Shown here: one piece after another, positions 14,729-33,266 of the stretch | How the letters are laid out: each line of letters starts with the position of its first letter | Position numbering within the stretch: position 1 is the stretch's first letter | Source of the DNA: Oligoflexales bacterium | GTDB taxonomy: Bacteria; Bdellovibrionota_B; Oligoflexia; Oligoflexales; RGVZ01 | DNA length: 64,000 nt | Assembly: GCA_947494335.1 (NCBI GenBank) | Contig: CANLUT010000002.1 | Location: forward strand, 579,904-643,903 | Direction of reading: 5' to 3' | Position numbers and translations under genes: made by a program | The notes under the pieces: generated by a model | The model's input: only the letters and a program-made list of their open reading frames with translations | Databases searched by the model: none | Told to the model about the DNA's origin: nothing

Positions 14729-14748
14729 AAAATTAGAGTCTCCGCGGT

Positions 14749-14777
14749 TTGTGGTACAGCGCGTTACCGCTTATAAT
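14749..14777 (+). promoter_or_regulatory. Candidate sigma70-type promoter for cls
   Basis: TTGTGG (14749-14754), a 17-nt spacer, then a perfect TATAAT (14772-14777), about 85 nt upstream of the cls ATG. Pattern match only. Confidence 0.3.
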
Positions 14778-14861
14778 TTAACACATATAGAATTTCTTTA
14801 GTATTGCCAATGATTTAGGCGTCACCGACGCAAAAATGACGAGACCTCGCTGGGGCGCTTA

Positions 14862-16349: not shown

Positions 16350-16381
16350 TTGCCAAGAATAGCGGAGGGCTAAGCTACTTC

Positions 16382-17380
16382 ATGTTTTGCTACTGGCAAA
16401 AACAGATTGTTCTGTGGTTTGTCGTCACTTTTTTCCTTCCGATAGAGGGCGTCGCTCGTCCTAGCAAGGAAGAGAAAGCCCGTCGACGGTCGGCTTTTTG
16501 GGGCGTCTTTTCTGACACATATCGCGCATCAGGGTGCCTTGGATTTAAACCGGTGGACCTCGCTTGTGCAAAAGCAGCGCTGAATGATGCTTTGGTTCAT
16601 GCAGATGTTATTGAAATCTCAGTAACAGATAAGGATCTTGGTTTTTCAAAAAGACTGAAGTTAATTCAGGGAAAAGTTGATGCTGCAGATGTTCTGCAAG
16701 CTCAATCAGAGATCAAGGGGTTTTTGAGATCACTTTTTGTTGAGTTTGCCGAGGCATCAGCTCCCGTGGTGCAACCTGATAAAAATCTCGGACAGAAAGT
16801 GTACAAAGATTACTGTGCGAGCTGTCACGGTGACGAAATGAGTGGTCAAGGGAAACTAGCTGGGAAATTGAAGCGTATTCCGCCCTCACTTAACCGTAGC
16901 GATCGATCTGGCACTCAGTTTCCTTTTGGGATCTACGCAGTCATGATTCATGGTACAGATGATGGAGAAATGACATCCTTGTTGGATGTGTTGACAGTCG
17001 ATGAGCTTTGGTCTGTTGCATTCTATGTTGCTAGCTTTCGTTTTAATGATCTGAAGTCTTTCGGAGACTCAGCTGAGCGCGAGAAGCTATTAGCCCAAGG
17101 CGATACATTTGCTTTGTCAGCTTTAGCGATGGCTACAGATGAAGACCTTGAAGCAATTTTACAAGGTCGCGGGATTTGTACCGAGTGTCAAAGCGCGCTT
17201 TATTCATTGCGCTCTGAATTTCCTTGGCAAGTGTCTACCAGCCGGCTGGATCCAGACGTTAAAGCACCTCGGGATCAGAGCGAGTACCGGGCTTTAGTGA
17301 TTCTTTTAATTATGGTCATTTTAGTTTCTGCGGGGTTTATTTACATTCTCAAACGAACTGGTCGTGTCGACGATCGTTAG
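16382..17380 (+). CDS. Monohaem c-type cytochrome domain protein with C-terminal membrane anchor
   Basis: Signal peptide, a single CASCH haem site, and a C-terminal TM (ALVILLIMVILVSAGFIYIL). Confidence 0.6.
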   Translation: MFCYWQKQIVLWFVVTFFLPIEGVARPSKEEKARRRSAFWGVFSDTYRASGCLGFKPVDLACAKAALNDALVHADVIEISVTDKDLGFSKRLKLIQGKVDAADVLQAQSEIKGFLRSLFVEFAEASAPVVQPDKNLGQKVYKDYCASCHGDEMSGQGKLAGKLKRIPPSLNRSDRSGTQFPFGIYAVMIHGTDDGEMTSLLDVLTVDELWSVAFYVASFRFNDLKSFGDSAEREKLLAQGDTFALSALAMATDEDLEAILQGRGICTECQSALYSLRSEFPWQVSTSRLDPDVKAPRDQSEYRALVILLIMVILVSAGFIYILKRTGRVDDR

Positions 17381-17492
17381 CTTCACAAGAGAATGCTGAA
17401 ATTACAGCAATTTAACGTGTTCTGATTAATTCTCAATGACGCCGCTTGTGCGTTGTCTGGTTTGTTGCTAAATCTGTCGATCTAGCAACGAT

Positions 17493-17567
17493 GGTCCCGT
17501 GGTGAAATGGATCTCATGGCACCCTCCGAAGGTGTAGTTGCAGGTTCGATTCCTGCCGGGACCGCCA
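17493..17567 (+). tRNA. tRNA-Arg (anticodon CCG)
   Basis: Hand-folded cloverleaf. Acceptor GGTCCCG/CGGGACC, anticodon stem GCACC/GGTGT, loop CTCCGAA (anticodon CCG), T arm GCAGG-TTCGATT-CCTGC, and an encoded CCA. Confidence 0.85.
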
Positions 17568-17575
17568 TCCATGTG

Positions 17576-17618
17576 AAAAACGCCTCCGTCTCATGTTCCT
17601 GAGACGGAGGCGTTTTAT
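17576..17618. terminator. Bidirectional rho-independent terminator between tRNA-Arg and yceI
   Basis: A 14-bp perfect stem CGCCTCCGTCTCAT.../...GAGACGGAGGCG (17581-17612), flanked by an A-run on the 5' side and a T-run on the 3' side. Confidence 0.7.
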
Positions 17619-17629
17619 TGAGATTGCAA

Positions 17630-18238
17630 TTATTTGGCAGCAAAAATGGCGGATGCAAATTGGAGTTTGACCGTTAGGTTAACTTTATCTGAGATCATTT
17701 TGTCGCCTAGGTTTTTAAAAAACTTACCGGAGCCGTAGCGCACGTTCCATTTTGTACGATCGAACTCTAAGTCCGCGGTAGCTGTTTTGCCATCAATGCT
17801 TGGCTTTGCGATAAAGTTGATTGGATGGGTTTCACTTTTGAGAGTTAGATCTGCGGTCACTTTGTAAGAGCCGTCCTTTTGAAGGCTGGCTTTTTTAAAA
17901 GTAAGAGTTGATGTTGGAAATTTTGCAACATCAAAGAAGTCGTCTGATTTCAAATGTCCGACCAATTTTGCGTTATATTCTTTATCAGTCAAATCAAGAT
18001 TAATAATGGAAGCCATATCGACGACGACTTTGCCACCCGCGAGATTCTTACCATCCATCTGGACTTCGCCTTCTTTAATAGCGATGGTTCCATTGTGAGA
18101 ACTACCTGTGACTTTACTTCCCTTCCACTCGACCACACTAGCGGCACTATCGATCATAAAAGACTTTGCGGCAAATGATGGTGTACCCGAAAACGATATA
18201 ATGGCTGTTAAAGCTAAAAGCTTGATTGAACGGAACAT
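17630..18238 (-). CDS. yceI: YceI-family periplasmic polyisoprenoid-binding protein
   Basis: Signal peptide. IDSAASVVEWKGSKVTGSSHNGTI... and KDGSYKVTADLTLKSETHPI fit the YceI pattern. Confidence 0.85.
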   Translation of the reverse strand: MFRSIKLLALTAIISFSGTPSFAAKSFMIDSAASVVEWKGSKVTGSSHNGTIAIKEGEVQMDGKNLAGGKVVVDMASIINLDLTDKEYNAKLVGHLKSDDFFDVAKFPTSTLTFKKASLQKDGSYKVTADLTLKSETHPINFIAKPSIDGKTATADLEFDRTKWNVRYGSGKFFKNLGDKMISDKVNLTVKLQFASAIFAAK

Positions 18239-18317
18239 GAGAATCTCCTGGCTAAAAATTTTGACGATACGTTATCCAAACGTGGCTCCAAGGATAGCAT
18301 TCTTTTTCTGATAATGT

Positions 18318-19694
18318 CTAGGCGCGCGGTCCAGTCATCATTGTTGAAATGTAGCGCTCTAAAACTGGTCTAGGAGCAAACGTGGCGTCCAGTTTCTGAA
18401 GGATGGTGAACAGTCCACCAATCTTTCTGTCCAAAAAAATCAGTTCCTGTGGAGGACGGCGAATGCCTTGTTCATACAGAAGACTCTTAACCTTATCGGC
18501 AGCTCGTTGTGCTAATTGGGTGCGTCCCCACATGTATGCGCTATCGTCCAAGAATGGTTCTGCAATCAGTTTTGAAATTGCATAAAAAGATTGAATATCG
18601 GACTCTGTGTCATCGTCTCTCATAATTTTGAGTGATCTTAGAGCGTCAAATAGCCGTTGAGCGTCCTTCTTAAAAACAACTGCATCAATAATGGAATGAT
18701 AGTCTTTGACGAAGGATTGCGGAAATGTCCGGACTGCACCAAAATCAAGCAATACCCATTGATCCTGTCCGTCCTCACTGATCTTGATACGGTAATTTCC
18801 AAAGTGAGGATCTGTTTGCACAGTGCGAAACTTAAAAAATTCCATAAAGAAAAGTTCGAGTATCGCCTCTCCTAGCCGATCTCGACGAGATTGCGGGAGG
18901 TTCATGACGTCAGAGCTATCAACATCATATCCCTCCTGAAACGATGTAAAAATCACGCGCTTTGTTGAGAATTCTCTATTTACCTCCGGGACGACAAACC
19001 GATTGTCGCTAGCAAGCCACTGTGCAAATTGCTCTGTTGCATCGGCTTCCTTTGAATAGTCGACTTCCCGGTGCAGCATGGCGCGTATCTCGGCAAACAG
19101 TCCGTCAAGATTCATATCTTTAGGAATGAATCGAAGTATCGAAAAAATTCGCTTCAATATTGCCAAGTCGCTATCAATAGATTTATCGACACCGGGATAT
19201 TGAACTTTCATGCACCATGTATGCTTATCGCCTGGGACTTTAACCTTGTACACTTGGCCAATTGATGCGGCTCCTAACGGAGTTGGGTCTATGGAGAGCT
19301 GCGTAAATTTTTCCATCCCTAGTGATCTCTTCGTCGACGCCATCATGACTTCAAAACTCACAGGAGGTGAGTCTTTTTGCAGGGATTTCAGGATATCCCG
19401 GACCTCAGGTGGTAAAAAATGTTCGCCATAGATGCTGAATAGCTGACCCGCTTTTTGAAGAGATCCTTTCAATTTACCGAGTTCTGCTGTCAAGCGTGTT
19501 GCTTGATCAATTAGAAAACGCCGAGATAGCTCAGATTTTTCATCTGATTTGATAAAGCTTTTAATAGACAGTAGCGCAGCGTCAGCGCCGGCTTTAAGCG
19601 ATAATGAGAGGAGCCGCGACGAGCGAGAGAAAGAGGATGTGATCAATTCATTTAGGATCCCATCGTCAGTATTTTTATTTTTCTTTCGCGCCAT
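18318..19694 (-). CDS. ABC1/UbiB-family atypical kinase
   Basis: AASIGQVYKV plus the downstream ABC1 kinase-like core (DPHFGNY, LLDFG). Start set to ATG 19694 (MARKKNK...), which is preceded by AGGAGA. The longer track ORF would overlap the divergent gene. Confidence 0.8.
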   Translation of the reverse strand: MARKKNKNTDDGILNELITSSFSRSSRLLSLSLKAGADAALLSIKSFIKSDEKSELSRRFLIDQATRLTAELGKLKGSLQKAGQLFSIYGEHFLPPEVRDILKSLQKDSPPVSFEVMMASTKRSLGMEKFTQLSIDPTPLGAASIGQVYKVKVPGDKHTWCMKVQYPGVDKSIDSDLAILKRIFSILRFIPKDMNLDGLFAEIRAMLHREVDYSKEADATEQFAQWLASDNRFVVPEVNREFSTKRVIFTSFQEGYDVDSSDVMNLPQSRRDRLGEAILELFFMEFFKFRTVQTDPHFGNYRIKISEDGQDQWVLLDFGAVRTFPQSFVKDYHSIIDAVVFKKDAQRLFDALRSLKIMRDDDTESDIQSFYAISKLIAEPFLDDSAYMWGRTQLAQRAADKVKSLLYEQGIRRPPQELIFLDRKIGGLFTILQKLDATFAPRPVLERYISTMMTGPRA

Positions 19695-19784
19695 CTTGGA
19701 AATATCTCCTCTGTCTGGGAGAATTATAGGGAATATTTTTGAAAAAGTCGCTTTTACAGAGTTTACGATATTTGGGGGCAATAA

Positions 19785-20585
19785 ATGAAAATACTGACTA
19801 CGAAACAATTATTCCTCTCGTTGCACTTTTTCGTAGCCTTTTATTGCAGCAGTACACTCGCTAATCCTGTTTCTGTAGATATGGAGCTTCCCTACAAATA
19901 TATTAGCTTTATCGTGAAAGATGCTAAAACGGGCAAGCCGATCAGCGAAGGCCGCGAAGATCTCAGGCAAGAAAATGGTTATATGACAAAGACTACCAAG
20001 TACTGGCTATTTGGCGACCGAAATAAGTCCGTGATTCAGGAAGAGACATGTTCATTTGAGTTGAAATCGCTTCGGCCAAAATATTACAAATTCCAGAACG
20101 CGAAGACTGGCGAATTTGTCTCGTTAACTGGGCCTAATGAGTCGGCCTTCGCCGAAAGTCTCCGTTACAAAGACGCTGCTGATAAACCAGAAGTTTCGGG
20201 CACATTCGCATGGAAAAGTGGCATGATTTTTGGCAAGACACTACATCATTTGATTGTCCGCTCCTGGCCAAAGCTGGTGAAAAATGATCATGAATCATTC
20301 CCTCTCTATGTACCCATGAAGAGAGATCAGTATGTTTTCAGAGTTTCGAAAAAGTCCGATAAGACTGCAGGTGATGTCGTCACGAGAGTGATATCTCTTG
20401 AGCCAGATAACTGGGCTTTTAGACAGCTGGCTCCCTCCATGCTCTTCTTTTACGCCGAGAAAAACGGTGTACCGACAGTGGTTCGATATGAGGGTCCAAC
20501 AACCGTCACAGTGGACAAGGACTCAGATCGCAAAGTGGTCATTGAATTCGCCTACGATTCCGAAATCTCAGGAGCTGCGCTTTAG
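19785..20585 (+). CDS. Hypothetical secreted protein
   Basis: 266-aa ORF with a signal peptide (LFLSLHFFVAFYCSSTLA). No family recognised. Confidence 0.55.
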   Translation: MKILTTKQLFLSLHFFVAFYCSSTLANPVSVDMELPYKYISFIVKDAKTGKPISEGREDLRQENGYMTKTTKYWLFGDRNKSVIQEETCSFELKSLRPKYYKFQNAKTGEFVSLTGPNESAFAESLRYKDAADKPEVSGTFAWKSGMIFGKTLHHLIVRSWPKLVKNDHESFPLYVPMKRDQYVFRVSKKSDKTAGDVVTRVISLEPDNWAFRQLAPSMLFFYAEKNGVPTVVRYEGPTTVTVDKDSDRKVVIEFAYDSEISGAAL

Positions 20586-23500
20586 GGCTTAGGCGAAGAT
20601 TCCTCTGTTGGTGTCTCGCCAGGGTTGCGTCCGCATGCAGAGTATATTTTCATGTAGGACCATGATGTAGATTCGGGCATGAACTTAATCGTCTGGATTT
20701 GGGCCTGTCGCAGTGCGAGGCAGGGGTCGCCCTTTTGCTGAAGGAAGCGATAGAAGTTTTTTGTGACAAAAAGTGTATCACTTTGGTTTTTAGGCGCATC
20801 ACTTCCGATGAAGTCTCTAATGCCTCGTTCAAATAGCGCTTCAGCAACAGTATCGCTATCGGTCGGTTGTGAAAAATACGCAAGCTTAATGCTGTCATTA
20901 CCAATCAATAATTCATCTACACGGATTGCCCCGGTCTTCGTCTGCTTCGAATTGAGCTGAATTTCAGATAGTTTTGGTTCAACGGCATTGGTGTCGTATT
21001 TTGCCGAGATATGAAGAAGATTTTTGCCGCCCAAAGCAGCCTGTACTTTATTTTTCGACATGCCGTCATCATAGAGAATTTGGGAGTCTGGGAAGAATCT
21101 TGGTAAAAGTGTACGCTCCTTAGAGAGAAATGATTTTTTATCTTGGGGAGTCAATACACCCAACACCTTGAGCAGACGGTTATCAGCAAAGTCAATATTT
21201 TTTTGCTGCGGGGTTATATACCCAATGGGCAAATATGAGATTTCAACCGACTCAACCAGATATTTTCCTGATAGTTGTAATCCAGCAAATGGAATGGCAG
21301 ATGTCGTTCGGGTGCTAATTACTCTGAGCCGATCAGAGCGGACAATATCTGCTTGTATCGGACGTAAAAGTGACTCCGAAAGTTGATTTAAAGATCTTTC
21401 TTGAATCTGTTTGTCGCCCAAAGAAAGATCTGTGAGAGTTCTCTCGAGCTCACTTCTCCGTAAATTTAGCTTTCTGTACTCAAGCTTTCGATTCACCAGG
21501 CGGAAAATATGGCTAGATCTTTCTCCGAAGAAATACGCAACAACCAGGCCATCCTTAGAGAGCTGGTTGGCCACATTAATAAACTTTTCTGCCCCTTTGG
21601 AAGAGCTTTTCCCTATATTGTACTCCTTGAGCTTTAACTCGAAATCCAAGGATGTCTCAAATGCCTGGTTCTTGAGATCACTTGATAAGAGCGCCTCAAT
21701 ATAGCGCTCATGAACATCTAGGTAAGATACTTGAGCAATCGAATTGGAGCTGAATTCGGCCTTTAATACGCCGACGGGCATCTTTGAAATATAGTCGTAG
21801 GACTGCTTTAGAAACTCGAGCGAGGTATTATACTTGTTCTGTTTTAGGGCCAGGAGTCCCAGTCCGTATTGAGCGCGCCACTTGAGATTCAAAATCTGAA
21901 ATCGACCTGCTACGTCAAGAGCCACTGAGAGTTTCTTTTCCGCCTCTTCTGTTTGCCCCAGCATGACTAGAATGTCTGCCTCGACCAAAAGAGTAAATAT
22001 GTAGGCGTATCGAATACCTTTGATCACAGGTTTTGAAAGTGATTTATCTAACAGGACTCTGGCGCTTTTAGGGTCGCCGCTCATTCCAATGACAAGTGCA
22101 AGATTAGCGGTTTCTGTGATTGAGAAGGGAACATTTTGGGGATCAATTTTGGCTAGTTCTTCATTGATCGTTATCGCTGATTCGAACAGGGCGGCTGCCT
22201 TTGAGAACTCGCCCCATTGTCTATGCCAGTGGGCAAGGTTGTGCCGAAGGTCTCGTTCAACGATTTTCTGTTTTGTCTCGATCGCCTGTAAAATACTTGA
22301 GTTGAATAGCGCCAGGGATTCCGTTCGTTTTCCTTCTGCCGCCAAAATCATGGCCCTAAGATTGTTTGTTCTTAACTTAAGCGATGCGGAAGTCTGATCG
22401 CTCTTAACTCGAGATATTTGCTTTGCGGCCTCGTTCAGATGAAACTTTGCCTCCGAGAGCCGACTTTGCCAATATAAAGACTCCGCAAGAGCATTATGTA
22501 GTTCCGCAAGTTCGGTCGCGGCTAGGCGTGCGCTATCCTCTTTAAGTAATGCAATCAAAAGATTCTGAGCATTAGTTTCTTCATGAGACTGAATTAAAAT
22601 TCGCGCTGTAACCAATCTAATTTCTAAGCGGACACTTTGACTATTTTGTACCAGTCCGATTTTGTCAGCCTCCGAAAGCAGTTTTTTTGCCTCGGCGAAG
22701 TCGAAAAGCTCATAGGCGTTAATCTTTGCTAATCTCAGATTGCATATGGCTAATTTTCCCCAGTCCTTAGCTTTTTGGTAATATCCCTTGGCAGTGAGAA
22801 GACTTTTAATTGCCTCATCAAATCTGCGCCTTTGCTGATGAATGATTCCCTGTAAATCATGGACTCTTGCCAAATCATCTGGCTTGAGTGTACTGGCCTG
22901 TTTTGATGAAAGAACCCGTGCCAAGATCCGCTCTGCATCGTCAAATCTTCCGCCTTTTTGTTGAATCTCAGCGGCTTCAATGTCCTTTAAAGTCGATTGA
23001 TCCTTTTTTAGTTCCTCAGAAAAGTGGCGTTGCGCATTCAAAAAGTAGACCAAGTCAGTTTTGTTATTTTGTTCAAGTGCAGTGTGATAGGCCAAGTTTG
23101 AGGCTTTATAAAGCTCCTCTTTGTTTCCTGAAAGCCATGCATAATAGAATGACTCGCGGGCTCGAAGGTATGCCAATTCCGGCTCCCCCGATCTTTTTGA
23201 CGTCTCAGATTCAGCCATCGCCCGCTGAAAATATTTCGACGACTGCTCATTGGCTACCTTGGCATTAACCCCCGGGTATCCGATAATTAAGGCTTGATCG
23301 AATAGATCCTGACTTACATCTTCCAATGGTGATTCATAAAATTGTGCCCTCAGAGACGTATTTGCAGTGTTCTCAATTTTTCTAGTGATGACGAGGGGTC
23401 TTGTTTTCCCTGTAGCCACGCCCTGCAAAAATCCCCGGAAAAACTGTGATCCAGAATCATTTTCTGAGATTAGCTCTGCATCAAAATGAAGAGGGCGATT

Positions 23501-26500
23501 GGCGATGATGTTTGGTAGAAAATCTGGGCTTGGAATAAACGAGATGGTTAATTTAGGACGCGACTTCGACCACCTGAGGATTTGTTCAAAGATCAAAGTG
23601 TTATCGGTTACAACATAGAGGCGGTCGATGGTTTTATTGCCCACCCGCTCGTTTAGAATTTTACTGATTGAATTTTGGTTGACGGATTTTGTCTCTGAAT
23701 CAGGTGCAATGGTTCGGATTCCTTCTTCTCCCATTGGAGAAATGAAAGACAGGGTGACGACTCCGTCATCACCTTTGTAGAACGTGACCATAACTTCTGA
23801 GGCATTGAGAGCTGCGCCAATTCGCTCCGCTTTTCCAATTCGGAACAGCTCAGAAACCTGAGACGTTATTTGATTTTGGCTTTCGCCCTGGCCTCCTTGA
23901 ATGATGAGGCGAGACATGATCGAAAAGTATTGGCGTAGAAGTCGTAACTTAGCGTCGGCGTCAGCATCGTTTTTGGCCAGTTGTGTCTCCACACATGTGC
24001 GCATTAATGTGGCATCGTTTTCAAGGATCTTTCCTCCTGAGCTTACATGAGAGGATAAAGCCTCGATGGCTTGGGTGCACAGACCTCGTGTGGCCAGGTA
24101 TTTCCAGGCAAGACCAGGCCTTGAGACGGCGGATCTTCGAAACTCAATGTGTGAGCTGAGAATTTCCTGGCGATTTGGATTCTTAGCAGCCTCGTCACGA
24201 TCCAGATTTAGGTTCGCGCTATTGACGAATGGTAGCTCTAGCCCGAGTTTCTGCGCCAAGAGGATCGACTCCTGAAACTTTGACTGCGCGATCGATCGTC
24301 TTTCATCTGTGGTGAGAATGTCTGAGGATATAATCTGTGCTAGTACCGAGTTCAGCGCAGCAGCGGCTAGCGATGCGTCACGATTACCAGAGGCCACTGG
24401 TTTTGAAAGTTCGTTGAGGGCCTGCGTTAACTGCTTTTCAATTTGGGCTTGCTCTTCTTTTGGTAGGGTCTTTAAGTCAGCGCGTCGAAGCTGAGTTCGC
24501 GCAAGGTCAAGAAGATTTATCCATTCAGACCTCGATGGGAACTCCTGGCCTTTTGAACGTAGGGTCTGCGCATATCCTAAACCTTCACTAAAATGCTTCA
24601 TTGCTTCTGGAAGCTGCCCCATGTTGGCGAGAAGGTATCCGAGATTATTATGAGACACTGCAAGATCTTCTGATAAATAGCCTTCTCCAAATCCGAATTT
24701 TTTTCCTCTTTTACGTTTCTCGTTTAGAAGCGCTATTTTCTGAATCAACTCGTCCTGCGCCTTTTTCAGGTCCCCTTGTCCTTCCCGTATTTGAGCTCTG
24801 AATGAGGCGATCTGAATTTTTTGATCTAAAGAGGTGAAACCCCGCGCCGCAGAATTCTCGCCAGCTATATCAATAAGAATTCCGTCGGATGTCTTAAGGT
24901 TATCTTCAGTTTTGATTTCGGCTAACAGGATTTCTGCTTTTGCGTATTGCTCGAGCGCCTGTTCACGTTTGCTGGCCATCATGAAGCAGTAGGCAATATT
25001 GATTCTTGTTGTGACCAAGTTGGCCTTGTTTCCCAGTTTTGATTGAACCTCAAGAAGTTTAGAGTAGGCTACCCTTGCTTCTTCGACTTTCCCTTGCTCC
25101 CGTAAGGTCAATGCGAGTGCGTCAATAGCGTAAGCCTTATCGATGTCGCTACCGTATGATATTGCAAGCTGCAGTGAGCGTTTTTGCATCGTTTCGGCTA
25201 CTTTCAATTCGTCAGCAAAAAACGCAGAACGACCAGCATGGCGGAATAAACGCATTTCAGATCTCTGGTCAGCAAATGGTCTAAGCTGCAGCATAGATAT
25301 GCGCCTCAGGTAGTGCCTCAGGCTCAGAGTAAAGGTTTGGTTTTCAAAATACGAGTTAGCTAATTGGAGTGAGAGCTCGGCCTTATCGGCTGATTCCTCG
25401 TCTGCTAAGTAGTATGCCGTCAAGCTTGAATCGATGGAGAGTTCGAACCAATTGGGGTCTGAAAATCCAAAAAATGACTTTGTATTGGTCCAGGAGGATG
25501 CGAGCCTTCCTGTAAATGATTTGTCCATGCTTTCAGCTTGAGCGCTGTGCGCCTTTTCAAGATAGAGTTTTCCAAGAAGTTTGTGGAACTGCGGTATTTG
25601 TCCGTTTATCTGCCTAGCGTTTTCCAGAATTTCAATAGCCTCCGAGATAGCTTTTGTCCTTATACTGGATGTTGTTCGTTTCTGTTTTTGCAATGCATAG
25701 GCGAGTAAGTAAAGTCGAACGGGATCTCGCGGCGCTTCTTCCGACAAGGTCCGTCGAGATTTTATCGTGGTTGAAAGCTCATCCAGAACTTCAGCAACAT
25801 CAATCATGCCTTCTTGAGCCGATATGTTGCCTGGATTGATCTCCGTAGATTTTTCAAATGCTCTTCGAGCAAGTGCGCTTTCACCTTCGTTTAGAAGAAT
25901 TCGACCACGCCTGACATAAAATTCCGATTCCATTTGAGCCGCTTCGCTGCGATCTGAATAGGTAGATTTTTTTATTGCTTCGCGCAAATCGTCAAAAACA
26001 GCGAGAACGATTGAAATTCGACCATTCGATTCTTCTCTTTTTATCAGAAACCGGGCGGCTTCAAGATATATGTGAGGCGGGGCCTCTGCTTCCTTTAAAA
26101 GTAATCTGTATTCGCTACTCGCAGCGTCCGCCTTATCGGTTAGTGCCATGACTTCGCCAAGGCGTTTTCGAATGTACCCACGAAGCGTTCCCGACCCTCG
26201 ACATCTTTCTAAAATGTCATTCAATTTCGAAATGGCCTCTGGATCATTTGGTTTTATTGCGTCCATGAGGTCGATGGCAGCATAGTGTAGCGTCGTCTTT
26301 TCTCCCGGAAATTTGCGCTCTAATTGGATTAGAACGGCTGTTGCCTCTTGGAGTCGTCGTCTTGCGGCTTCAATGCGAACCAGGTAGCCTAATGCCTTGG
26401 CTGCGTCATATTGATGGTGAGACGACTCCCCCGCAATAGATCTCAAAGTGATTTCAGCCAAGCGAAAGTCGCCCTTCGTTGCTGCGATTTCACTCAAGAC

Positions 26501-27940
26501 AATGTCGGCTTTTATCCGAATTTGTTCCGAAACAGCTGATGTCTGCGTTTTTCTACCCTTAATGCTTTTTGCAACACTTTCCCATTCATTCAAACGTGTC
26601 GAGAAGTCGTCTGGCTGTGGAAGTTCTGGGTCAGGGAAGCGATAAGGCGAGATCTTTAACGATAACATTTGAAGGTCGGCGATGGACTGAAGATCTTGGT
26701 TGTCTCGAAACTCGTCCGCAATTTTTTTACGCAGGTTACTCGCCTCAATTCTTCGACCTAGTTCAGTCAACCATGCGAGTTCCTTGAGTGCTAATTCACC
26801 AGCTAGTTTTTGATCATTATTTTGTGCAGCCAGTGCGGCGCCTCGACGTAGAACGAATAATTTATCGTCGTCATCATTCACCTTTTCGAAAGTCTCACTG
26901 ACATCCACGAGTGAGGTTTGACTTTTGACGTGGCCAAAATCCGGTAGCCGATAAATGTCTAAGCTGTCTGAATCTTCGCTAGCAAAGTAAATATACGGTG
27001 AGAAGCTACGCGGATAAAATGCTGATCTTGAGCTGCTCGATAATGGAGCGATCTTGAAAGACTCAAGAGACGTCTTCCGCTCGACTTGTGCCGATGTTCT
27101 CAGGCTCCAAATGGTCGGTCGGTCCTCTGGAGTCAACTGGCCGTCACTATTTGTATCATCTGCGTAGCGAATAAAGGTGACCGTATCGTTGTCTGAGGAG
27201 AAATTCGGGTGGCCATCTTGTCCCATTATACCGTCTGTAAGGGGGTGCTCCTGACTATTTGTCAGGCTATAAAGATACAGTCGCCCGCCTCTTGAATAGA
27301 CGATCTTTGTTCCATCGGGGCTCACGCTTGGGTAATCGCCGCGGATTTCTGCAAGACTTGAAATTTTAGCTTCCTTATCCACATTAGCCAAATATAGCCT
27401 AGGCTCCTTGTTGCCCATTTCCCGTGCTGAAAAAACAATTTTCTTGCTATTCGGAAACCATGCAGGGCTGCGGTTTTCCAGTTCGCGCAGGTTGATGTCA
27501 ATAAGTGTTGGTTCAATGATTCCGCCCAAATTCGAGATATTTGCACCCATTTCCATAATGTGAATGGCACCGGCAGCATTTGTTCTTCTTGAAACGAATG
27601 CTATATATTTGCCATTTGGTGACATGACGGGGGAAAAGTCATCGGCAGGATGACTGGTTATCGGCGTCCCATAGCCCCCTCGGGTCTTCTTAACAAAGAT
27701 GTCCTTATTTCCGTTACGGTCTGATGTATAAAACATATAAGACCCGTTTGGTGACAGAGTCGGGCTGAAGTTTGATTCGTTTCCGATTGTGATTCTTGTT
27801 GGGCTTTCGAAGGTTTCGTTTAGTTGCGGTAAACCAAACTCGGTTTTGGACGTGTACCTTCTGCTCGCGCAGTTATATGCTGAAAACGCGAAAAGACTCG
27901 CTAAAATAGTAATTTTAAGATTTCTAGAAATGAATCTCAT
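20582..27940 (-). CDS. Giant lipoprotein: TolB-like beta-propeller, extended TPR arrays and a C-terminal CHAT-like domain with degenerate catalytic residues
   Basis: Start set to ATG 27940 (MRFISRNLKITILASLFAFSAYNC, a lipobox), 2 nt after the upstream stop. PD40/TolB-type repeats include FSPTLSPNGSYMFYTSDRNG, FSPVMSPNGKYIAFVSRR and PSVSPDGTKIVYS. Many TPR-like helices follow. The last 323 aa match the CHAT pattern (LRVISTRTTSAIPFAGL, ISYLP, LLHISAKYD, KLAYFSQPTD, FYRFL...ALRQAQ). Confidence 0.8.
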   Translation of the reverse strand: MRFISRNLKITILASLFAFSAYNCASRRYTSKTEFGLPQLNETFESPTRITIGNESNFSPTLSPNGSYMFYTSDRNGNKDIFVKKTRGGYGTPITSHPADDFSPVMSPNGKYIAFVSRRTNAAGAIHIMEMGANISNLGGIIEPTLIDINLRELENRSPAWFPNSKKIVFSAREMGNKEPRLYLANVDKEAKISSLAEIRGDYPSVSPDGTKIVYSRGGRLYLYSLTNSQEHPLTDGIMGQDGHPNFSSDNDTVTFIRYADDTNSDGQLTPEDRPTIWSLRTSAQVERKTSLESFKIAPLSSSSRSAFYPRSFSPYIYFASEDSDSLDIYRLPDFGHVKSQTSLVDVSETFEKVNDDDDKLFVLRRGAALAAQNNDQKLAGELALKELAWLTELGRRIEASNLRKKIADEFRDNQDLQSIADLQMLSLKISPYRFPDPELPQPDDFSTRLNEWESVAKSIKGRKTQTSAVSEQIRIKADIVLSEIAATKGDFRLAEITLRSIAGESSHHQYDAAKALGYLVRIEAARRRLQEATAVLIQLERKFPGEKTTLHYAAIDLMDAIKPNDPEAISKLNDILERCRGSGTLRGYIRKRLGEVMALTDKADAASSEYRLLLKEAEAPPHIYLEAARFLIKREESNGRISIVLAVFDDLREAIKKSTYSDRSEAAQMESEFYVRRGRILLNEGESALARRAFEKSTEINPGNISAQEGMIDVAEVLDELSTTIKSRRTLSEEAPRDPVRLYLLAYALQKQKRTTSSIRTKAISEAIEILENARQINGQIPQFHKLLGKLYLEKAHSAQAESMDKSFTGRLASSWTNTKSFFGFSDPNWFELSIDSSLTAYYLADEESADKAELSLQLANSYFENQTFTLSLRHYLRRISMLQLRPFADQRSEMRLFRHAGRSAFFADELKVAETMQKRSLQLAISYGSDIDKAYAIDALALTLREQGKVEEARVAYSKLLEVQSKLGNKANLVTTRINIAYCFMMASKREQALEQYAKAEILLAEIKTEDNLKTSDGILIDIAGENSAARGFTSLDQKIQIASFRAQIREGQGDLKKAQDELIQKIALLNEKRKRGKKFGFGEGYLSEDLAVSHNNLGYLLANMGQLPEAMKHFSEGLGYAQTLRSKGQEFPSRSEWINLLDLARTQLRRADLKTLPKEEQAQIEKQLTQALNELSKPVASGNRDASLAAAALNSVLAQIISSDILTTDERRSIAQSKFQESILLAQKLGLELPFVNSANLNLDRDEAAKNPNRQEILSSHIEFRRSAVSRPGLAWKYLATRGLCTQAIEALSSHVSSGGKILENDATLMRTCVETQLAKNDADADAKLRLLRQYFSIMSRLIIQGGQGESQNQITSQVSELFRIGKAERIGAALNASEVMVTFYKGDDGVVTLSFISPMGEEGIRTIAPDSETKSVNQNSISKILNERVGNKTIDRLYVVTDNTLIFEQILRWSKSRPKLTISFIPSPDFLPNIIANRPLHFDAELISENDSGSQFFRGFLQGVATGKTRPLVITRKIENTANTSLRAQFYESPLEDVSQDLFDQALIIGYPGVNAKVANEQSSKYFQRAMAESETSKRSGEPELAYLRARESFYYAWLSGNKEELYKASNLAYHTALEQNNKTDLVYFLNAQRHFSEELKKDQSTLKDIEAAEIQQKGGRFDDAERILARVLSSKQASTLKPDDLARVHDLQGIIHQQRRRFDEAIKSLLTAKGYYQKAKDWGKLAICNLRLAKINAYELFDFAEAKKLLSEADKIGLVQNSQSVRLEIRLVTARILIQSHEETNAQNLLIALLKEDSARLAATELAELHNALAESLYWQSRLSEAKFHLNEAAKQISRVKSDQTSASLKLRTNNLRAMILAAEGKRTESLALFNSSILQAIETKQKIVERDLRHNLAHWHRQWGEFSKAAALFESAITINEELAKIDPQNVPFSITETANLALVIGMSGDPKSARVLLDKSLSKPVIKGIRYAYIFTLLVEADILVMLGQTEEAEKKLSVALDVAGRFQILNLKWRAQYGLGLLALKQNKYNTSLEFLKQSYDYISKMPVGVLKAEFSSNSIAQVSYLDVHERYIEALLSSDLKNQAFETSLDFELKLKEYNIGKSSSKGAEKFINVANQLSKDGLVVAYFFGERSSHIFRLVNRKLEYRKLNLRRSELERTLTDLSLGDKQIQERSLNQLSESLLRPIQADIVRSDRLRVISTRTTSAIPFAGLQLSGKYLVESVEISYLPIGYITPQQKNIDFADNRLLKVLGVLTPQDKKSFLSKERTLLPRFFPDSQILYDDGMSKNKVQAALGGKNLLHISAKYDTNAVEPKLSEIQLNSKQTKTGAIRVDELLIGNDSIKLAYFSQPTDSDTVAEALFERGIRDFIGSDAPKNQSDTLFVTKNFYRFLQQKGDPCLALRQAQIQTIKFMPESTSWSYMKIYSACGRNPGETPTEESSPKP

Positions 27941-27942
27941 GA

Positions 27943-28521
27943 TTATTGCTTGACCGTCCACCGATTGCCCACATTGAACCAATGTCCTGTTGGAGATTTC
28001 TCAAAGATATCTCGCGCAAAATTTGTACGAATTTGAGATTCCTCCGAATCTTTTGACTTGGCCTCGTCGGTGATTGAGCTCTTCCAAATAATGCCGCGAT
28101 CACGATTTTCCTCGTCTATCAATGCCTCGGCCAGCTTGATTTGCTCGGGTGACGCCTGCGTAACTCCGCCGAGGGATTTTGGGAGCAAGCCGACAGAACC
28201 GTCAGAAGTTTCTCCGATGATTCCGTTATCTTTGAGTTCTTTAATATCGTCAGCATTGAACTCTCGGTTTTTCTGTGCGCGCTCGAGCTCGACGGTTGCT
28301 AGAGACTTTCGTTGTGACTTTACCTCAATATCCTTTGAAGTTTTTTCAAAGTTAGTAACGATAAGGTCGTCTTCAAGCTCTCGATAGTTCCCCATGATCT
28401 GATTCTCTAGTGCTGTTTTTTGAGATGTCAGCTCAAATTTGAAGGAGCAAGCGCTTAGAAGTAGTGCGCTCGTGATTGTTAGGATTCGAAGTTCCGGTAA
28501 GCGATTAGTGTGCAGAATCAT
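27943..28521 (-). CDS. DUF1318/YdbL-like lipoprotein
   Basis: Lipobox LLLSAC. GIIGETSDGSVGLLPK, EALIDEENRDRGIIW and the C-terminal GHWFNVGNRWTVKQ resemble E. coli YdbL family features. Overlaps the upstream gene by 17 nt. Confidence 0.55.
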   Translation of the reverse strand: MILHTNRLPELRILTITSALLLSACSFKFELTSQKTALENQIMGNYRELEDDLIVTNFEKTSKDIEVKSQRKSLATVELERAQKNREFNADDIKELKDNGIIGETSDGSVGLLPKSLGGVTQASPEQIKLAEALIDEENRDRGIIWKSSITDEAKSKDSEESQIRTNFARDIFEKSPTGHWFNVGNRWTVKQ

Positions 28522-31500
28522 TTGTGTCCTCGCCCTGTTCTCGGAAGTTGTTAATTAGCTTTGCAATAGGAAATCCCTGGAGTTTTGGCGTTGGAATCGG
28601 CGCAGACAGAAGTCTTAAATTCACATCTAAGCCAATTTCCCCGTTTTTGATTGGAACGGAAACAAGTTTTACATCACCAAAATTCAAAGCAGTTTTGATT
28701 GCGCTAATCGTCGCATCTCGGTCGCCTGGATCAATGTAATAAAGAATCATTCTCAGTTGGTCTTTTCCGATGGAGGTAATGCTCAGGCCTCCCTGCATGT
28801 CCCCAGTTCTCAAATCATAGTTAAGGTGTGCGGCTGCATCAATTAGCGGATTATTGGATGAGAGTATGTTTTTAGATTTTTTTCTAAGCCCAGGCACAGT
28901 CTTTACTAGCTTCTCGGTATTTATACGAGTTGCGTGAAAGGATGTTTTTAGGCTCGTGGGCCGCTCATCGAATGCGAGCTTGAAGTCAGCGTGAAGCTTT
29001 CCTCCTAAAAAGGATGCAACCGCATTGTTAATCGCAAGTTGGTTTTGTGTTAGCTCCAGATCAACTTCGATGTTTTCGATATTTAGATTCATGGCCCGAG
29101 CTGATCGTACTTTTATGGGTCTTCTTTGGGTATAAAACTCACGAAAGTTCGCGTAGTCTTGATTGAGTGTAATTCGCGTGTCGCCTGTTACGGCTGGTTT
29201 AATTCGTGTTAGATAATTATTGGCCTCATTAATTACGGCATCGTCGTCGATGGCGCCTAATTCTGTTTGGGTGCCATCGTCGGCTGTTGTGTTACGATCT
29301 TGCTTGGTTGGGGTAGTGCTGAATTTTTTAAATGATGAGATCTGAATTGCTTGCTGGAGGGGGATTGTGCCTGAAATGTCTTGAATCTCGGCGCTTATAT
29401 TTGGACTGTCTTGGGACTGAAATGAAGCGCTGACGTTTTGCAGGTCAATTAGCGCGGTCAGGTTGGCTGTGTCCATATCCGAAGATGAGATGAGGACATC
29501 TGTCTTGACGGAGCCCTTTGCATCAAATCCTTTAACAAACCCTCTAGGGATATCATCAACCGATACTTTAGTTTTCACATTGAAACTTGTCGGCTGCTGC
29601 TCATCATCTAATGTCAGCTCAGCTGCTGATTCGACTGCGGTGGCCAAGTCTGGCAGCGCGATCTTTAGGCTTTGAATGTTGAGATTGCGCAGGGAGCTTG
29701 TGTTTCCTGATGAGGTAAGTTTTATGTTTGTGAGTGGTTTATTAAGCGCAGATGGGATATCCACTCTCCCAACTGAAAACTCTGCATTAAAGGACGTTTT
29801 GATGGAGTTTAAAATCTTAGCGAGGCTATAGGATAAGTTGGCGTTGCTTACTAAATTAGTTTTTAGATCAACCCCATGAACGCGAACTTCGTGAGTTTTC
29901 TTCGCCTTACCTTCAATTTGTGCGCCAGCCACGTCAATTGTTTGGCGGATGCTAGTTGAGAGTTTTCTTTCCGATCCGTCGATATTGAGACTGTAACCTG
30001 CCTTTTTTACGAATGCTCGATTGGCTGGGATTGCGAGCGAAAGATCCGTTATAGTTAAGGCGGTTTCGTGCCTTAGCTTTAGTGCATTTGTTTTTGGATT
30101 GAAATGACCTTTTCCGTCAATGAGGCCGGATCCTTTTATTTCCGACTTGAATGCAAGTTGGCCCTTTATGTCTTCTGGCACAAATTTAGGAATCAGCATT
30201 CTCGACGCATTTGCTTTGATTTGGGACCAAATTTTCTCGAATGATGGTATCGCGGCTTCGTTGGTCACTTCAAAGGTTTGACAGCCGTCATTGCATTTGG
30301 CAATTAGTTGTTGGGATAGCAACTCACCTAATTTGAGTCTCTGATGCAGAAATAGGGATCTGAGGCTATCTGCACTGTCGGCGTCCACCTCGAAAGAAAA
30401 TGGCACGCTTACAGGTTCAAAGGAGTCTCCCTCAACTCCAACGTTTCCAATATTGATAGCTAACTTTGAGGTGGCTGTTGTCGGCAGGGGGAAATGAAGG
30501 CCGTTGGTCATTGAGGCTGTGATATTACGAAGGTAAGCGGTATTGTTTTGGTTTTCTTTTTTGAAACGGAAGTTTAGTGATTCGAGGCTATGACTCATCT
30601 TTGATGAGATTTGGATATTGTCAGTCTCTTTTCTGTTTTCTTCGAACTGGTAAGCAAAGTTGTAGTTAGCCATCGATAAGCCCATCGAAGGAAGTGATGC
30701 TTGCAATTTTTTTCCTTCGATCACAGCGGATGTTATGTTTGGCATTAATAGGTAGAGTTTTGATTCAGATATATTTTGGGCGACCTGATCAGGTCTTACA
30801 TTGCCAGCGATTTTGCTGATAGCGATATTTATTTCTCCGTCTGATTTTAATTCAAAAGGTAGCAGTTTTGACAGATTGCTGGGTAGTTTCATGGTTAATC
30901 TAGTTTGGTGGCTTGCCGAATAGCTGAGGATTTTGTCGTCTTCTGAGTTTGGATATATCGAGAGATTTGTTTCGGATCTGAGGAGCTCATCCAATATTTT
31001 TAATCTTATTTTTCTTATATCAAATCCGCCTAGTTTCTCATTGGCCACCATTTGAAGACTTAAGTTTGAGCTAAGCTTATCGGTCAGAATATTATTCATG
31101 GCTAGATTCTGTAGGCTTATGCCCAACTCTGCATCTAGATGGCGCCAGTATGCCGATAGGTTTACTAAAGCCGATAAGTCAGTCAAAGTGACTTTTTTTC
31201 CGTCTTGAAGAATGTTGACGTCTAGATGTTGGATCCCGATTTTTGTTGCTTTTATGCGGATTGGTATCCAAAACATTTTGGATAGACTTCTTATGACTCC
31301 GCCAATCGGTACGGATTCACTCGAAGCTCCAGGCTGTTGTGGTTGTGATTTACCCGATTTAATTCTGTAAAGAGTGATTCCTTGGAATTCGGATTTGGCG
31401 TAGTCACCATTTACTGCGATTATTCCGCCATGTATCTGGGCTCGCGTAATTCGCAGGGTGCCATAGAGAAGTGCCCAAAGATTGTAATGTAGCCTAAACT

Positions 31501-31813
31501 CTTTTATGTGTATGAACTCTTTAGCCGGGATCTGACGCACAGTTCCGTCGATTTGTGGTGGTTGAAATTTTATGTTCCTACCTGTAAATCCTCGGAACGC
31601 ATTGAAGTCCAATGCTTCAATAGCAAGTTTTCCACCGGTCTCTTCGGCAACACTTTTCTCCAGGAGACGGAGCACTTTTTGAGTGTCAGTCACCAGATAA
31701 AGAGTCACGGCTAATGTTATGACGATGGTCGCTCCAGCTGCGAACAGCGCAAGCAACCAGCGAAGTATTGTTCGCCACACGTTTAACGCTCCTAAGAGAG
31801 CCGTAAATATCAA
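28505..31813 (-). CDS. AsmA-like / YdbH-like large inner-membrane-anchored envelope protein
   Basis: 1102 aa with a single N-terminal TM (LLALFAAGATIVITLAVTLYLV). The remainder is long, beta-rich and repetitive. The assignment rests on this architecture and on synteny with the ydbL-like gene, not on a motif. TTG start as in the ORF track. Confidence 0.5.
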   Translation of the reverse strand: MIFTALLGALNVWRTILRWLLALFAAGATIVITLAVTLYLVTDTQKVLRLLEKSVAEETGGKLAIEALDFNAFRGFTGRNIKFQPPQIDGTVRQIPAKEFIHIKEFRLHYNLWALLYGTLRITRAQIHGGIIAVNGDYAKSEFQGITLYRIKSGKSQPQQPGASSESVPIGGVIRSLSKMFWIPIRIKATKIGIQHLDVNILQDGKKVTLTDLSALVNLSAYWRHLDAELGISLQNLAMNNILTDKLSSNLSLQMVANEKLGGFDIRKIRLKILDELLRSETNLSIYPNSEDDKILSYSASHQTRLTMKLPSNLSKLLPFELKSDGEINIAISKIAGNVRPDQVAQNISESKLYLLMPNITSAVIEGKKLQASLPSMGLSMANYNFAYQFEENRKETDNIQISSKMSHSLESLNFRFKKENQNNTAYLRNITASMTNGLHFPLPTTATSKLAINIGNVGVEGDSFEPVSVPFSFEVDADSADSLRSLFLHQRLKLGELLSQQLIAKCNDGCQTFEVTNEAAIPSFEKIWSQIKANASRMLIPKFVPEDIKGQLAFKSEIKGSGLIDGKGHFNPKTNALKLRHETALTITDLSLAIPANRAFVKKAGYSLNIDGSERKLSTSIRQTIDVAGAQIEGKAKKTHEVRVHGVDLKTNLVSNANLSYSLAKILNSIKTSFNAEFSVGRVDIPSALNKPLTNIKLTSSGNTSSLRNLNIQSLKIALPDLATAVESAAELTLDDEQQPTSFNVKTKVSVDDIPRGFVKGFDAKGSVKTDVLISSSDMDTANLTALIDLQNVSASFQSQDSPNISAEIQDISGTIPLQQAIQISSFKKFSTTPTKQDRNTTADDGTQTELGAIDDDAVINEANNYLTRIKPAVTGDTRITLNQDYANFREFYTQRRPIKVRSARAMNLNIENIEVDLELTQNQLAINNAVASFLGGKLHADFKLAFDERPTSLKTSFHATRINTEKLVKTVPGLRKKSKNILSSNNPLIDAAAHLNYDLRTGDMQGGLSITSIGKDQLRMILYYIDPGDRDATISAIKTALNFGDVKLVSVPIKNGEIGLDVNLRLLSAPIPTPKLQGFPIAKLINNFREQGEDTNDSAH

Positions 31814-31914
31814 GGATAATTAAAGTATATCAGTTTTCGGCGGGGGCACGTAGAGGCGCTACTAGGCTGAAATGCTCACCTTACAACGGTTTGACTTGTC
31901 TACAGATAGGTCAA

Positions 31915-33003: not shown

Positions 33004-33266
33004 AAAATAGTGGTCGCAACAGTCACAAAATAGCTGGATAGCAGGGGTTTGCCACTGAATTTTTCAAGAAATTTTTAAGAATTTATTTAATCATTTTCTA
33101 TCGAGCTATTAATATCGATGCAGTATGTGTTTAAAAAACTAAGGAATTCATGCATTTAAAAGAAAATGGGGGCTTGCATGTTGCCGACAAAGCCACTAGA
33201 AACTCGGCGTTCGATGGGCAGGGTGCCCCCAGTAGTATTACTTTTAATCGAAGGAGAACGCACACG

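Follow-up and report, generated by a model that had tools for sequence, protein, structure and literature searches.

A giant exported PD40-TPR-CHAT protein without a CHAT catalytic dyad, encoded beside AsmA-like and DUF1318 genes in an Oligoflexales bacterium

Comparison with described systems

This report concerns a giant gene and its neighbors in a 64,000-nucleotide (nt) stretch of the genome of an Oligoflexales bacterium (NCBI GenBank assembly GCA_947494335.1, contig CANLUT010000002.1, positions 579,904 to 643,903 of the forward strand; the whole stretch is termed the window, and coordinates are counted from its first letter, with the reverse strand marked (-)). The gene encodes a protein of 2452 amino acids (aa) that combines a PD40 beta-propeller, long helical TPR arrays and CHAT domains, the C-terminal one of which lacks the catalytic His-Cys dyad. 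Its best structural matches are the TPR-CHAT proteases (e.g., Csx29 craspase, separase and SAVED-CHAT), in which a TPR array is likewise followed by a caspase-like CHAT domain. Those proteases are cytoplasmic, carry the dyad and are activated allosterically, whereas the giant protein is predicted to be exported and has no dyad. It is also about four times larger, is fused to a PD40 propeller and probably contains a second, degenerate CHAT domain, and its gene has no CRISPR or cyclic-oligonucleotide-based anti-phage signaling system (CBASS) context.

A periplasmic TPR-CHAT module has been described in the anti-sigma factor DdvA, which its authors call the only such case (PMC11506125). DdvA keeps His862 and Cys907 in an active site described as incomplete, is anchored by a transmembrane helix, carries a cytoplasmic zinc-binding anti-sigma domain and regulates a defense island (PMC11506125). 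The giant protein shares the periplasmic TPR-CHAT module of DdvA (structural match at E = 3e-7) and differs from it in its signal peptide and lipobox-like Cys and in lacking both an anti-sigma part and the dyad. In the literature searched, DdvA alone was found as a known periplasmic CHAT protein, and the family described here enlarges this very small set.

It is not settled how phospholipids travel to the outer membrane, and AsmA-like bridge proteins are the leading candidates; to our knowledge, TamB and YdbH of E. coli are the only such bridges with known partners or regulators. The E. coli bridge between the two membranes formed by the AsmA-like YdbH and the lipoprotein YnbE has YdbL as a modulator (PMC11126948, PMC13464000). 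The ydbH-ynbE-ydbL operon and the present locus share an inner-membrane-anchored AsmA-like protein and a DUF1318/YdbL-type protein encoded in tightly coupled frames, together with an outer-membrane-directed lipoprotein encoded in the operon. However, the third E. coli gene encodes a 61-aa lipoprotein where the window has the 2452-aa PD40-TPR-CHAT protein, and, unlike E. coli YdbL, the YdbL-like protein of the window is a lipoprotein in its own right, extended at the N-terminus by ~60 conserved residues. A last comparison is with TolB, another exported protein with PD40-type propeller blades, from which the giant protein is set apart by a score far below the family cut-off, by the missing TolB N-terminal domain and by the lack of a tol-pal cluster.

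The giant protein and its export signal

In the open reading frame (ORF) list, the giant ORF is open over 20582..27982 (-) if started at an upstream TTG. The ATG at 27940 lies 2 nt past the TAA of the preceding (DUF1318) gene, and the product started there begins MRFISRNLKITILASLFAFSAYNC, with a basic n-region, a hydrophobic core and Cys24. Because this ATG opens a typical export signal, the 2452-aa product was accepted. The features of the gene are:

20582..27940 (-), giant gene, stop codon included, encoding the 2452-aa PD40-TPR-(CHAT remnant)-TPR-CHAT protein (ORF list and translation)
27869..27940 (-), signal peptide (residues 1-23) and putative lipidated Cys24 in a lipobox-like SAYN-C (sequence; Cys in most relatives)
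26951..27808 (-), PD40 beta-propeller, ~residues 45-330, the best conserved region (Pfam PD40)
24071..26950 (-), first helical/TPR region, residues 331-1290, the family-specific core (TPR_1/TPR_2/TPR_8 at 673-705, 764-804 and 1094-1121)
23495..23836 (-), putative second-CHAT remnant, N-terminal lobe only, ~residues 1369-1482 (relatives' CHAT at the homologous place, alignment, hhalign)
21581..23263 (-), second TPR region, ~residues 1560-2120 (TPR_12, TPR_7, TPR_10 and TPR_16 at 1857-2045)
20642..21577 (-), C-terminal CHAT domain without catalytic dyad, residues 2122-2433 (Pfam, family hidden Markov model (HMM), AlphaFold2 (AF2), Foldseek)
20999..21001 (-), Lys2314 at the catalytic His position of hIAsHG (alignments with relatives)
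20867..20869 (-), Gln2358 at, or one residue before, the catalytic Cys position, with the following loop ~10 residues shorter (alignments)

The PD40 and TPR repeat profiles of Pfam both score above threshold. PD40 matches in four stretches from residue 48 (E = 3.4e-23, 81.5 bits), and several TPR families span residues 673-2045 (TPR_12 78.9, TPR_1 64.3 and TPR_2 62.2 bits), the helical/TPR repeats amounting to ~1500 aa in all. The first-pass annotation of this DNA, made from the letters without database searches, had likewise reported a long TPR-like array; the 2452-aa ORF, the motifs and the nt coordinates that it gave (Lys at 20999-21001, Gln at 20867-20869) proved exact.

Export of the giant protein is supported by its signal peptide, apart from which no hydrophobic segment was found in the protein. 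In most of the ~85 long members aligned to the family HMM, the signal peptide ends in a Cys, behind which an RKY/RRY motif is conserved, and one subgroup has an Ala-x-Ala type signal in its place; with signals of either kind across the members, export is therefore a family trait. Residues -3 to -1 before Cys24 are A-Y-N, compared with a lipobox consensus of [LVI][ASTVI][GAS]C, and the residue at -1 is Arg in relative P0002 and His in P0003 and P0004. Since the lipobox is non-canonical (Asn at -1), lipidation is only probable, and the protein would probably be lipid-anchored at Cys24. The earlier description of a lipoprotein with a lipobox thus holds for the signal peptide and the conserved Cys, with the caveat that the lipobox is not canonical.

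A CHAT domain without its catalytic dyad

Judged by profile and by its modeled caspase/separase-like alpha/beta fold, the C-terminal domain is a true CHAT domain. PF12770 matched residues 2182-2419 with 48.6 bits (cut-off 24; E = 1e-12; profile positions 2-268 of 289), and the family-specific CHAT HMM matched at E = 1.6e-27. The AF2 model of the last 335 residues is compact and confident (predicted local distance difference test score (pLDDT) 85, predicted template modeling score (pTM) 0.87). Its best Foldseek matches in the PDB are Csx29/TPR-CHAT of type III-E CRISPR (E = 3.5e-11, TMq 0.63-0.68), followed in order by the periplasmic TPR-CHAT of DdvA (E = 3e-7), separase and SAVED-CHAT; the rest of the top 36 matches (E<=1e-3) are axonemal central-apparatus chains (7n6g, 9ijj) and a set of 8xxx/7xxx entries labeled 'bacterial protein complex'. 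The C-terminal 372 aa alone found no relatives in a word-indexed search, a full-length query being needed, and a PDB sequence search with the C-terminus gave chance matches or none. The CHAT-like C-terminus that had been read from the sequence was thus borne out by both profile and structure, and the possibility that it is not CHAT-like did not materialize.

In most relatives, the aligned C-termini carry the canonical motifs hIAsHG (with the catalytic His) and LSAC(E/Q)(S/T)G (with the catalytic Cys). At these places the giant protein reads LLHISAKYD and AYFS-QPTD, with ~10 residues absent after the strand, such that the LSACxxGlg loop of the relatives is reduced to FSQP plus a ~10-residue deletion. 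The alignments agree with the replacement of His by Lys and of Cys by Gln that had been proposed earlier, the lost-Cys column being ambiguous by one residue (Q2358, P2359 or deleted). In the AF2 model, K2314 comes after the LLHIS strand and the LAYFSQP strand ends at Q2358, and the family alignment laid over the model strands places these residues at the His and Cys sites of the dyad-keeping relatives. The only His residues of the domain are 2144 and 2310, the latter being the non-catalytic first His of hIAsHG that is conserved family-wide, and the only Cys residues are 2407 and 2436. As none of the four is catalytically placed, no alternative dyad can be proposed, and the check for a suitably placed His/Cys pair elsewhere in the domain found none. 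With the His replaced by Lys and the Cys loop replaced and shortened, the alignments show a C-terminal CHAT domain without nucleophile and general base, which, on these residues, cannot act as a cysteine protease.

A separate observation concerns the two Cys residues just named, Cys2407 (20720-20722 (-), DPC...) and Cys2436 (20633-20635 (-), ...YSAC), which are kept in the giant protein and in relatives P0001, P0002 and P0003 and are absent from the rest of the family. They may form a disulfide that arose once the dyad had gone, as would suit a protein in the periplasm.

Distribution and history of the loss

A full-length search yielded 48 relatives, most of them 2400-2800 aa long with the same PD40/TPR/CHAT content. 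When residues 330-1290 (neither PD40 nor CHAT) were used as the query against 1.84 billion cluster representatives, 40 matches were obtained at E<=1e-30, almost all of them 2300-2800 aa long and collinear. The giant-protein family is small but real, comprising about 60-85 sequence clusters. An orthologue that is 95% identical and collinear occurs in an Oligoflexales metagenome-assembled genome (MAG) from a lake.

When the ~85 long members were aligned to the family HMM, both His and Cys were present in ~65 of the 85, P0004 and P0008 among them. The dyad is absent from the giant protein and from P0001, P0002, P0003, P0068, P0007 and P0083, from a spirochaete group (P0034, P0037, P0039 and P0047), in which CHAT has decayed almost beyond detection, and from three scattered members. 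In a neighbor-joining tree of the non-CHAT region, the giant protein and the six relatives named first form one clade, nested among dyad-keeping proteins (a tree without bootstrap support), and the sister sequences of this dead clade differ at the two sites (T/deletion, F/M, S/G). This pattern fits a single loss of the dyad in the ancestor of an Oligoflexales-type clade that would since have diverged to ~30% identity. An inactivated, lipidated and TolB-fused CHAT protein had been considered unusual; the loss of the dyad is indeed special to the lineage, whereas export and the TolB-type fusion are family-wide and most members are dyad-intact.

The ratio of non-synonymous to synonymous substitution rates (dN/dS) relative to the 95%-identical Oligoflexales orthologue varies along the protein:

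PD40 propeller, 0.057
TPR regions, 0.10-0.11
mid-protein remnant, 0.22
C-terminal CHAT domain, 0.21 (24 non-synonymous versus 31 synonymous changes)

By these ratios, the constraint on the C-terminal CHAT domain is relaxed, yet purifying and clearly not neutral. In pairs of proteins that both keep the dyad, the second TPR region together with CHAT (TPR2+CHAT) is 31-48% identical, equal to or above the first helical region (31-42%). In pairs from the dead clade, TPR2+CHAT is 16-26% identical, PD40 53-60% (the range found for the giant protein with P0002 and P0003) and the first helical region 37-41%. Because the identity of TPR2+CHAT falls in the absence of the dyad, the TPR-CHAT half is taken to be one module whose main constraint has gone with catalysis. 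From the same identity pattern, we infer that the N-terminal half carries a function conserved family-wide.

A probable remnant of a second CHAT domain

Two motifs, RLYVVTDNTLIFEQIL from residue 1440 and LTISFIPSPDFL from residue 1464, lie inside a mid-protein segment in which a second, partial CHAT-like domain had been suspected. The HMM of dyad-keeping C-terminal CHAT domains finds a second, mid-protein CHAT in distant members of the family (P0033 at E = 2.9e-43, P0030 and P0031 at ~2e-29, P0022-P0028 at E = 1e-11 to 1e-20). In the full-length alignment, residues ~1369-1482 of the giant protein fall on the N-terminal part of this domain, the C-terminal half of which is deleted in the clade of the giant protein. 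A mid-segment profile built from this clade plus P0004-P0021 matches CHAT positions 5-139 (hhalign 92%, E = 6e-7), and the four clade sequences by themselves give a profile without a significant match (E = 0.11). Residues 1335-1560, modeled with AF2 at a moderate pLDDT of 70, show the secondary-structure order of the N-lobe of the C-terminal model, and Foldseek with this moderate-confidence model returned weak RNase H-like matches and no CHAT structure. Homology thus supports reading the segment as the remnant of a second CHAT domain; the suspicion gained from profiles and alignment and drew nothing from the structure search.

The mid-protein CHAT lies at ~residues 1290-1860 in P0022-P0033 (e.g., 1456-1776 in P0033). 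In the members aligned full-length, neither the His nor the Cys motif is seen in it, even where the copy is complete and scores strongly (down to E = 3e-43). A pseudo-CHAT may therefore have stood beside an active CHAT since early in the history of the family, before it diversified, an arrangement that recalls the pseudo-protease/protease pairing of separase.

The AsmA-like/DUF1318/giant gene cassette

Two genes precede the giant gene on the same strand, and they overlap each other by 17 nt:

27943..28521 (-), lipoprotein gene, 192 aa (LLLSAC), its C-terminal DUF1318 (YdbL-like) domain preceded by a conserved N-terminal extension (Pfam, 36.5 bits, cut-off 27)
28505..31813 (-), AsmA-like gene, ~1100 aa, with an N-terminal membrane helix (homology to the orthologue in locus L003)

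The giant gene directly follows a DUF1318 lipoprotein gene in 12 of 13 loci compared, and an AsmA-like gene lies upstream of the DUF1318 gene in 10 of the 13, an eleventh being cut off at a contig end (in L013, the DUF1318-giant order is kept and the gene upstream is lost to the contig end). The order AsmA-like, DUF1318, giant, in overlapping or abutting frames, is found in the window, L002, L003, L004/L005, the locus of P0009, L009 and L012; it is also found in L008 (Spirochaetae bacterium HGW-1) and, judged by gene sizes, in L007 (Leptospira sp.). L002 and L003 hold the closest relatives of the giant protein after that of the Oligoflexales MAG, and the cassette loci together span Bdellovibrionota-type, spirochaete and other lineages. 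The adjoining AsmA-like and DUF1318 genes agree with the envelope operon proposed in the first-pass annotation, and the conserved gene order is the strongest clue to the function of the giant protein.

The AsmA-like protein of the window is 29% identical over its full length to its L003 orthologue (E = 2e-176), which matches the AsmA and DUF748 families of Pfam and the AsmA family of NCBIfam; the orthologues in L002, L008, L009, L012 and the P0009 locus match AsmA and/or DUF748. AsmA-like orthologues also match the 'LIC_11026 family' of NCBIfam. The TTG given as the start of the ORF probably lies too far upstream, and a GTG at codon 12 (~31780), where the orthologue alignment begins (VWRTILRW versus MWRKLYRW), may be the true start. 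The C-terminal ~110 residues (~28505-28850 (-)) are by far the most conserved part among seven aligned orthologues, the spirochaete ones included, and read ITSIGKDQLRMILYY.DP...NGEIG.DV..RLLSAPIPTPK.QGFPIAKL. They are a candidate docking site for partner proteins.

A profile of ten cassette DUF1318 proteins matches E. coli YdbL (hhalign 91%, E = 1e-6); a PDB sequence search with the DUF1318 protein gave chance matches or none. All ten are ~185-200 aa long, compared with 108 aa for E. coli YdbL, and have a signal peptide that ends in Cys. A strongly conserved extension of ~60 residues follows right after this Cys (C-S/T-F/I-x..T-S/G-Q/E-R/K-T-A-L-E-N/K-Q-I/V-L/M-G-x-Y-x-E-L/I-D/E), which is not YnbE-like and has no family match. 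The ten genes are located at:

window 27943-28521 (-); L002 9450-10019; L003 9459-10019; L004 7450-8040; L007 7402-8001
L008 7399-8004; L009 7393-7953; L011 5437-5988; L012 5424-6014; L013 2112-2681

Two identifications with the E. coli system were considered and rejected: the DUF1318 lipoprotein as a YnbE-YdbL fusion (no PF13617 match, with hhalign of the extension against YnbE matching the signal peptide only) and the AsmA-like protein as a YdbH orthologue (profile comparison at E = 0.17 against YdbH).

Proposed role and alternative explanations

On balance, we consider it fairly probable that the giant protein is a non-catalytic partner of an AsmA-like envelope module, derived from an ancestral TPR-CHAT cleaver and now binding or structural. 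It would work in the periplasm with the inner-membrane AsmA-like protein and the YdbL-like lipoprotein, in a module resembling the E. coli YdbH-YnbE-YdbL outer-membrane lipid-homeostasis system. The conserved N-terminal half (propeller and first helical region) would carry the core interaction, and the ancestral TPR-CHAT half probably cleaved a partner in the module, possibly the YdbL-like protein, whereas in the Oligoflexales-type clade this half would survive only as a binding or structural module. Of the pseudo-protease scaffold suggested at first pass, the lost dyad stands; the scaffold role we infer, for a C-terminal half under relaxed purifying constraint. A wider proposal is that the trio is an undescribed, widespread type of intermembrane bridge whose assembly or turnover is controlled by a periplasmic caspase-like protease, as DegP acts on YdbL in E. 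coli, with the giant lipoprotein replacing YnbE on the outer-membrane side and the Oligoflexales version being a pseudoenzyme that regulates by binding; this is tentative, and we would sooner doubt than adopt it.

Several points weigh against the reading as a partner of an AsmA-like module. The functional link to the AsmA-like and DUF1318 genes is drawn solely from conserved gene order. The AsmA-like protein of the window has no direct family match in Pfam or NCBIfam, and its profile resembles neither E. coli YdbH (E = 0.17) nor any solved structure. YnbE (PF13617) is absent from the DUF1318 protein of the window and from six DUF1318-type proteins of related loci, in a scan where E. coli YnbE as a control scores E = 3e-16; in the absence of a YnbE-like lipoprotein, the cassette is therefore not an orthologue of YdbH-YnbE-YdbL. 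The pairing is also not universal, as L011 (candidate division LCP-89) has the DUF1318-giant pair and no AsmA-like gene, and the family member in L006 is without both neighbors. For a signal peptidase II site, Asn at lipobox position -1 is unusual (close relatives have Arg or His there), and the tree that groups the dead clade carries no bootstrap support. Finally, the C-terminal half evolves faster, as it also would if it were a nearly functionless relic.

This last point leads to the main rival explanation, in which the TPR-CHAT half is a functionless vestige in the course of being lost and only the propeller and first helical region are functional. Such decay would account for the low TPR2+CHAT identity of dead-clade pairs (16-26%, versus 31-48% in dyad-keeping pairs and 37-41% in the first helical region), for the doubled dN/dS of CHAT relative to the TPR regions, for the almost undetectable CHAT of the spirochaete clade and for a mid-protein CHAT already reduced to a stump. 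It is harder to reconcile with a CHAT dN/dS of 0.21, well under 1 (24 non-synonymous versus 31 synonymous changes), with a full-length CHAT free of frameshifts across a clade at ~30% identity, with the compact and confident AF2 fold and with the conserved Cys pair specific to the subclade. We regard it as unlikely, and each of a sensor, residual-protease or TolB role as less likely again. An envelope sensor or signaling protein similar to DdvA or craspase, with a TPR-CHAT module that detects phage or stress signals in the periplasm and a gene that adjoins the AsmA-like gene by coincidence, would be in keeping with a fold closest to Csx29 that also matches the periplasmic TPR-CHAT of DdvA (PMC11506125), with the FecR-domain genes after the giant gene in two relatives and with the response-regulator-TPR genes nearby in three. 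However, no anti-sigma domain, sigma factor, CRISPR or CBASS gene was found nearby, PADLOC gave only a marginal TPR match, the neighborhood is a housekeeping one that is syntenic among Oligoflexales, the DUF1318 pairing holds in 12 of 13 loci over very divergent lineages, and signaling by cleavage is impossible for a dead protease, all of which makes a sensor role improbable.

A CHAT domain that is still a protease through non-canonical residues is very hard to credit. No support for it was found beyond the retention of the first His of hIAsHG (H2310), which is structural family-wide; the domain has two His and two Cys only, with both Cys in its last 46 residues, the nucleophile loop is ~10 residues shorter, and sister sequences differ at both sites (T/deletion, F/M, S/G). 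A TolB paralogue acting in Tol-Pal is just as implausible. The PD40 repeats do partly match TolB models, but the score against the TolB equivalog TIGR02800 is 80.8 bits versus a cut-off of 343.15 and covers propeller blades only (positions 270-352), Pfam found no TolB N-terminal domain in the giant protein, and no tolQRA or pal genes are present among the ORFs scanned at 12578-33746. The TolB-like propeller of the first-pass annotation is accordingly retained as PD40 repeats and dropped as TolB itself.

Automatic annotations of relatives already read 'CHAT domain-containing protein / Tol biopolymer transport system component', and the domain content is therefore not new. A literature search found no paper on the PD40-TPR-CHAT architecture, the pseudo-protease clade or the cassette; the family of giant proteins is undescribed, and the recurrent AsmA-like/DUF1318/giant gene order is newly seen here. 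The interest of the giant protein rests mostly on the AsmA-like link. The cassette points to a new class of partners of AsmA-like bridges and suggests their proteolytic control, and the clades with an intact, dead or nearly erased CHAT domain are natural 'experiments' that could separate catalytic from scaffolding roles.

Neighboring genes in the window and in related loci

The sole PADLOC match of the giant protein is to a generic TPR-repeat model and is marginal (E = 6.2e-4, with no single stretch passing), and three neighbors (the DUF1318 gene, the AsmA-like gene and ORF 19785-20585) gave nothing. A promoter and terminator scan of 19500-33500 gave counts at the level of shuffled sequence and was uninformative. 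ORF 19785-20585 (+), convergent with the giant gene, encodes 266 aa with a signal peptide (MKILTTKQLFLSLHFFVAFYCSSTLANP) and no family match; its end overlaps the giant-gene stop by 4 nt, and a conserved counterpart (95%) is present in the near-identical Oligoflexales MAG (L001) alone and missing from L002 and L003.

Some members of the family have further neighbors of their own. In two dyad-keeping relatives, the stop of the giant gene is overlapped by a gene in the same direction whose product of 491-498 aa has a signal peptide and matches nothing in Pfam; this downstream gene is located at:

L004 15716-17212; L005 11694-13190; P0009 locus 15782-17257

It has no homologue in the window and is absent from the dead-CHAT loci; its product could be cleaved by the active protease or act together with it. 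A FecR-domain gene comes directly after the giant gene in two unrelated lineages (L008 15867-16916, L011 14581-15423), and L004 (17593-19797), L012 (13572-15746) and the P0009 locus share a conserved gene for a response-regulator-TPR protein of 724-734 aa, just downstream and in the opposite orientation. These two kinds of neighbor hint at a signaling connection in parts of the family.

The neighborhood of the giant gene in the window is one of housekeeping synteny among Oligoflexales, with no mobile or defense genes. Directly upstream of the cassette lies an MqnC-like radical S-adenosylmethionine (SAM) gene (Radical_SAM and CofH_C, 31915-33003 (-)), as it does in L002 and L003. Genes for an ABC1 kinase, YceI, a cytochrome c, a phospholipase D (PLD)-type (cardiolipin-synthase-like) protein and a methylmalonyl-CoA mutase lie downstream at 12578-19808, and the Pfam scan of the ORFs at 12578-33746 returned these genes together with DUF1318, radical SAM and three ORFs without a match (one of them AsmA-like). 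The cytochrome c, PLD-type and methylmalonyl-CoA mutase genes are also syntenic in L002.

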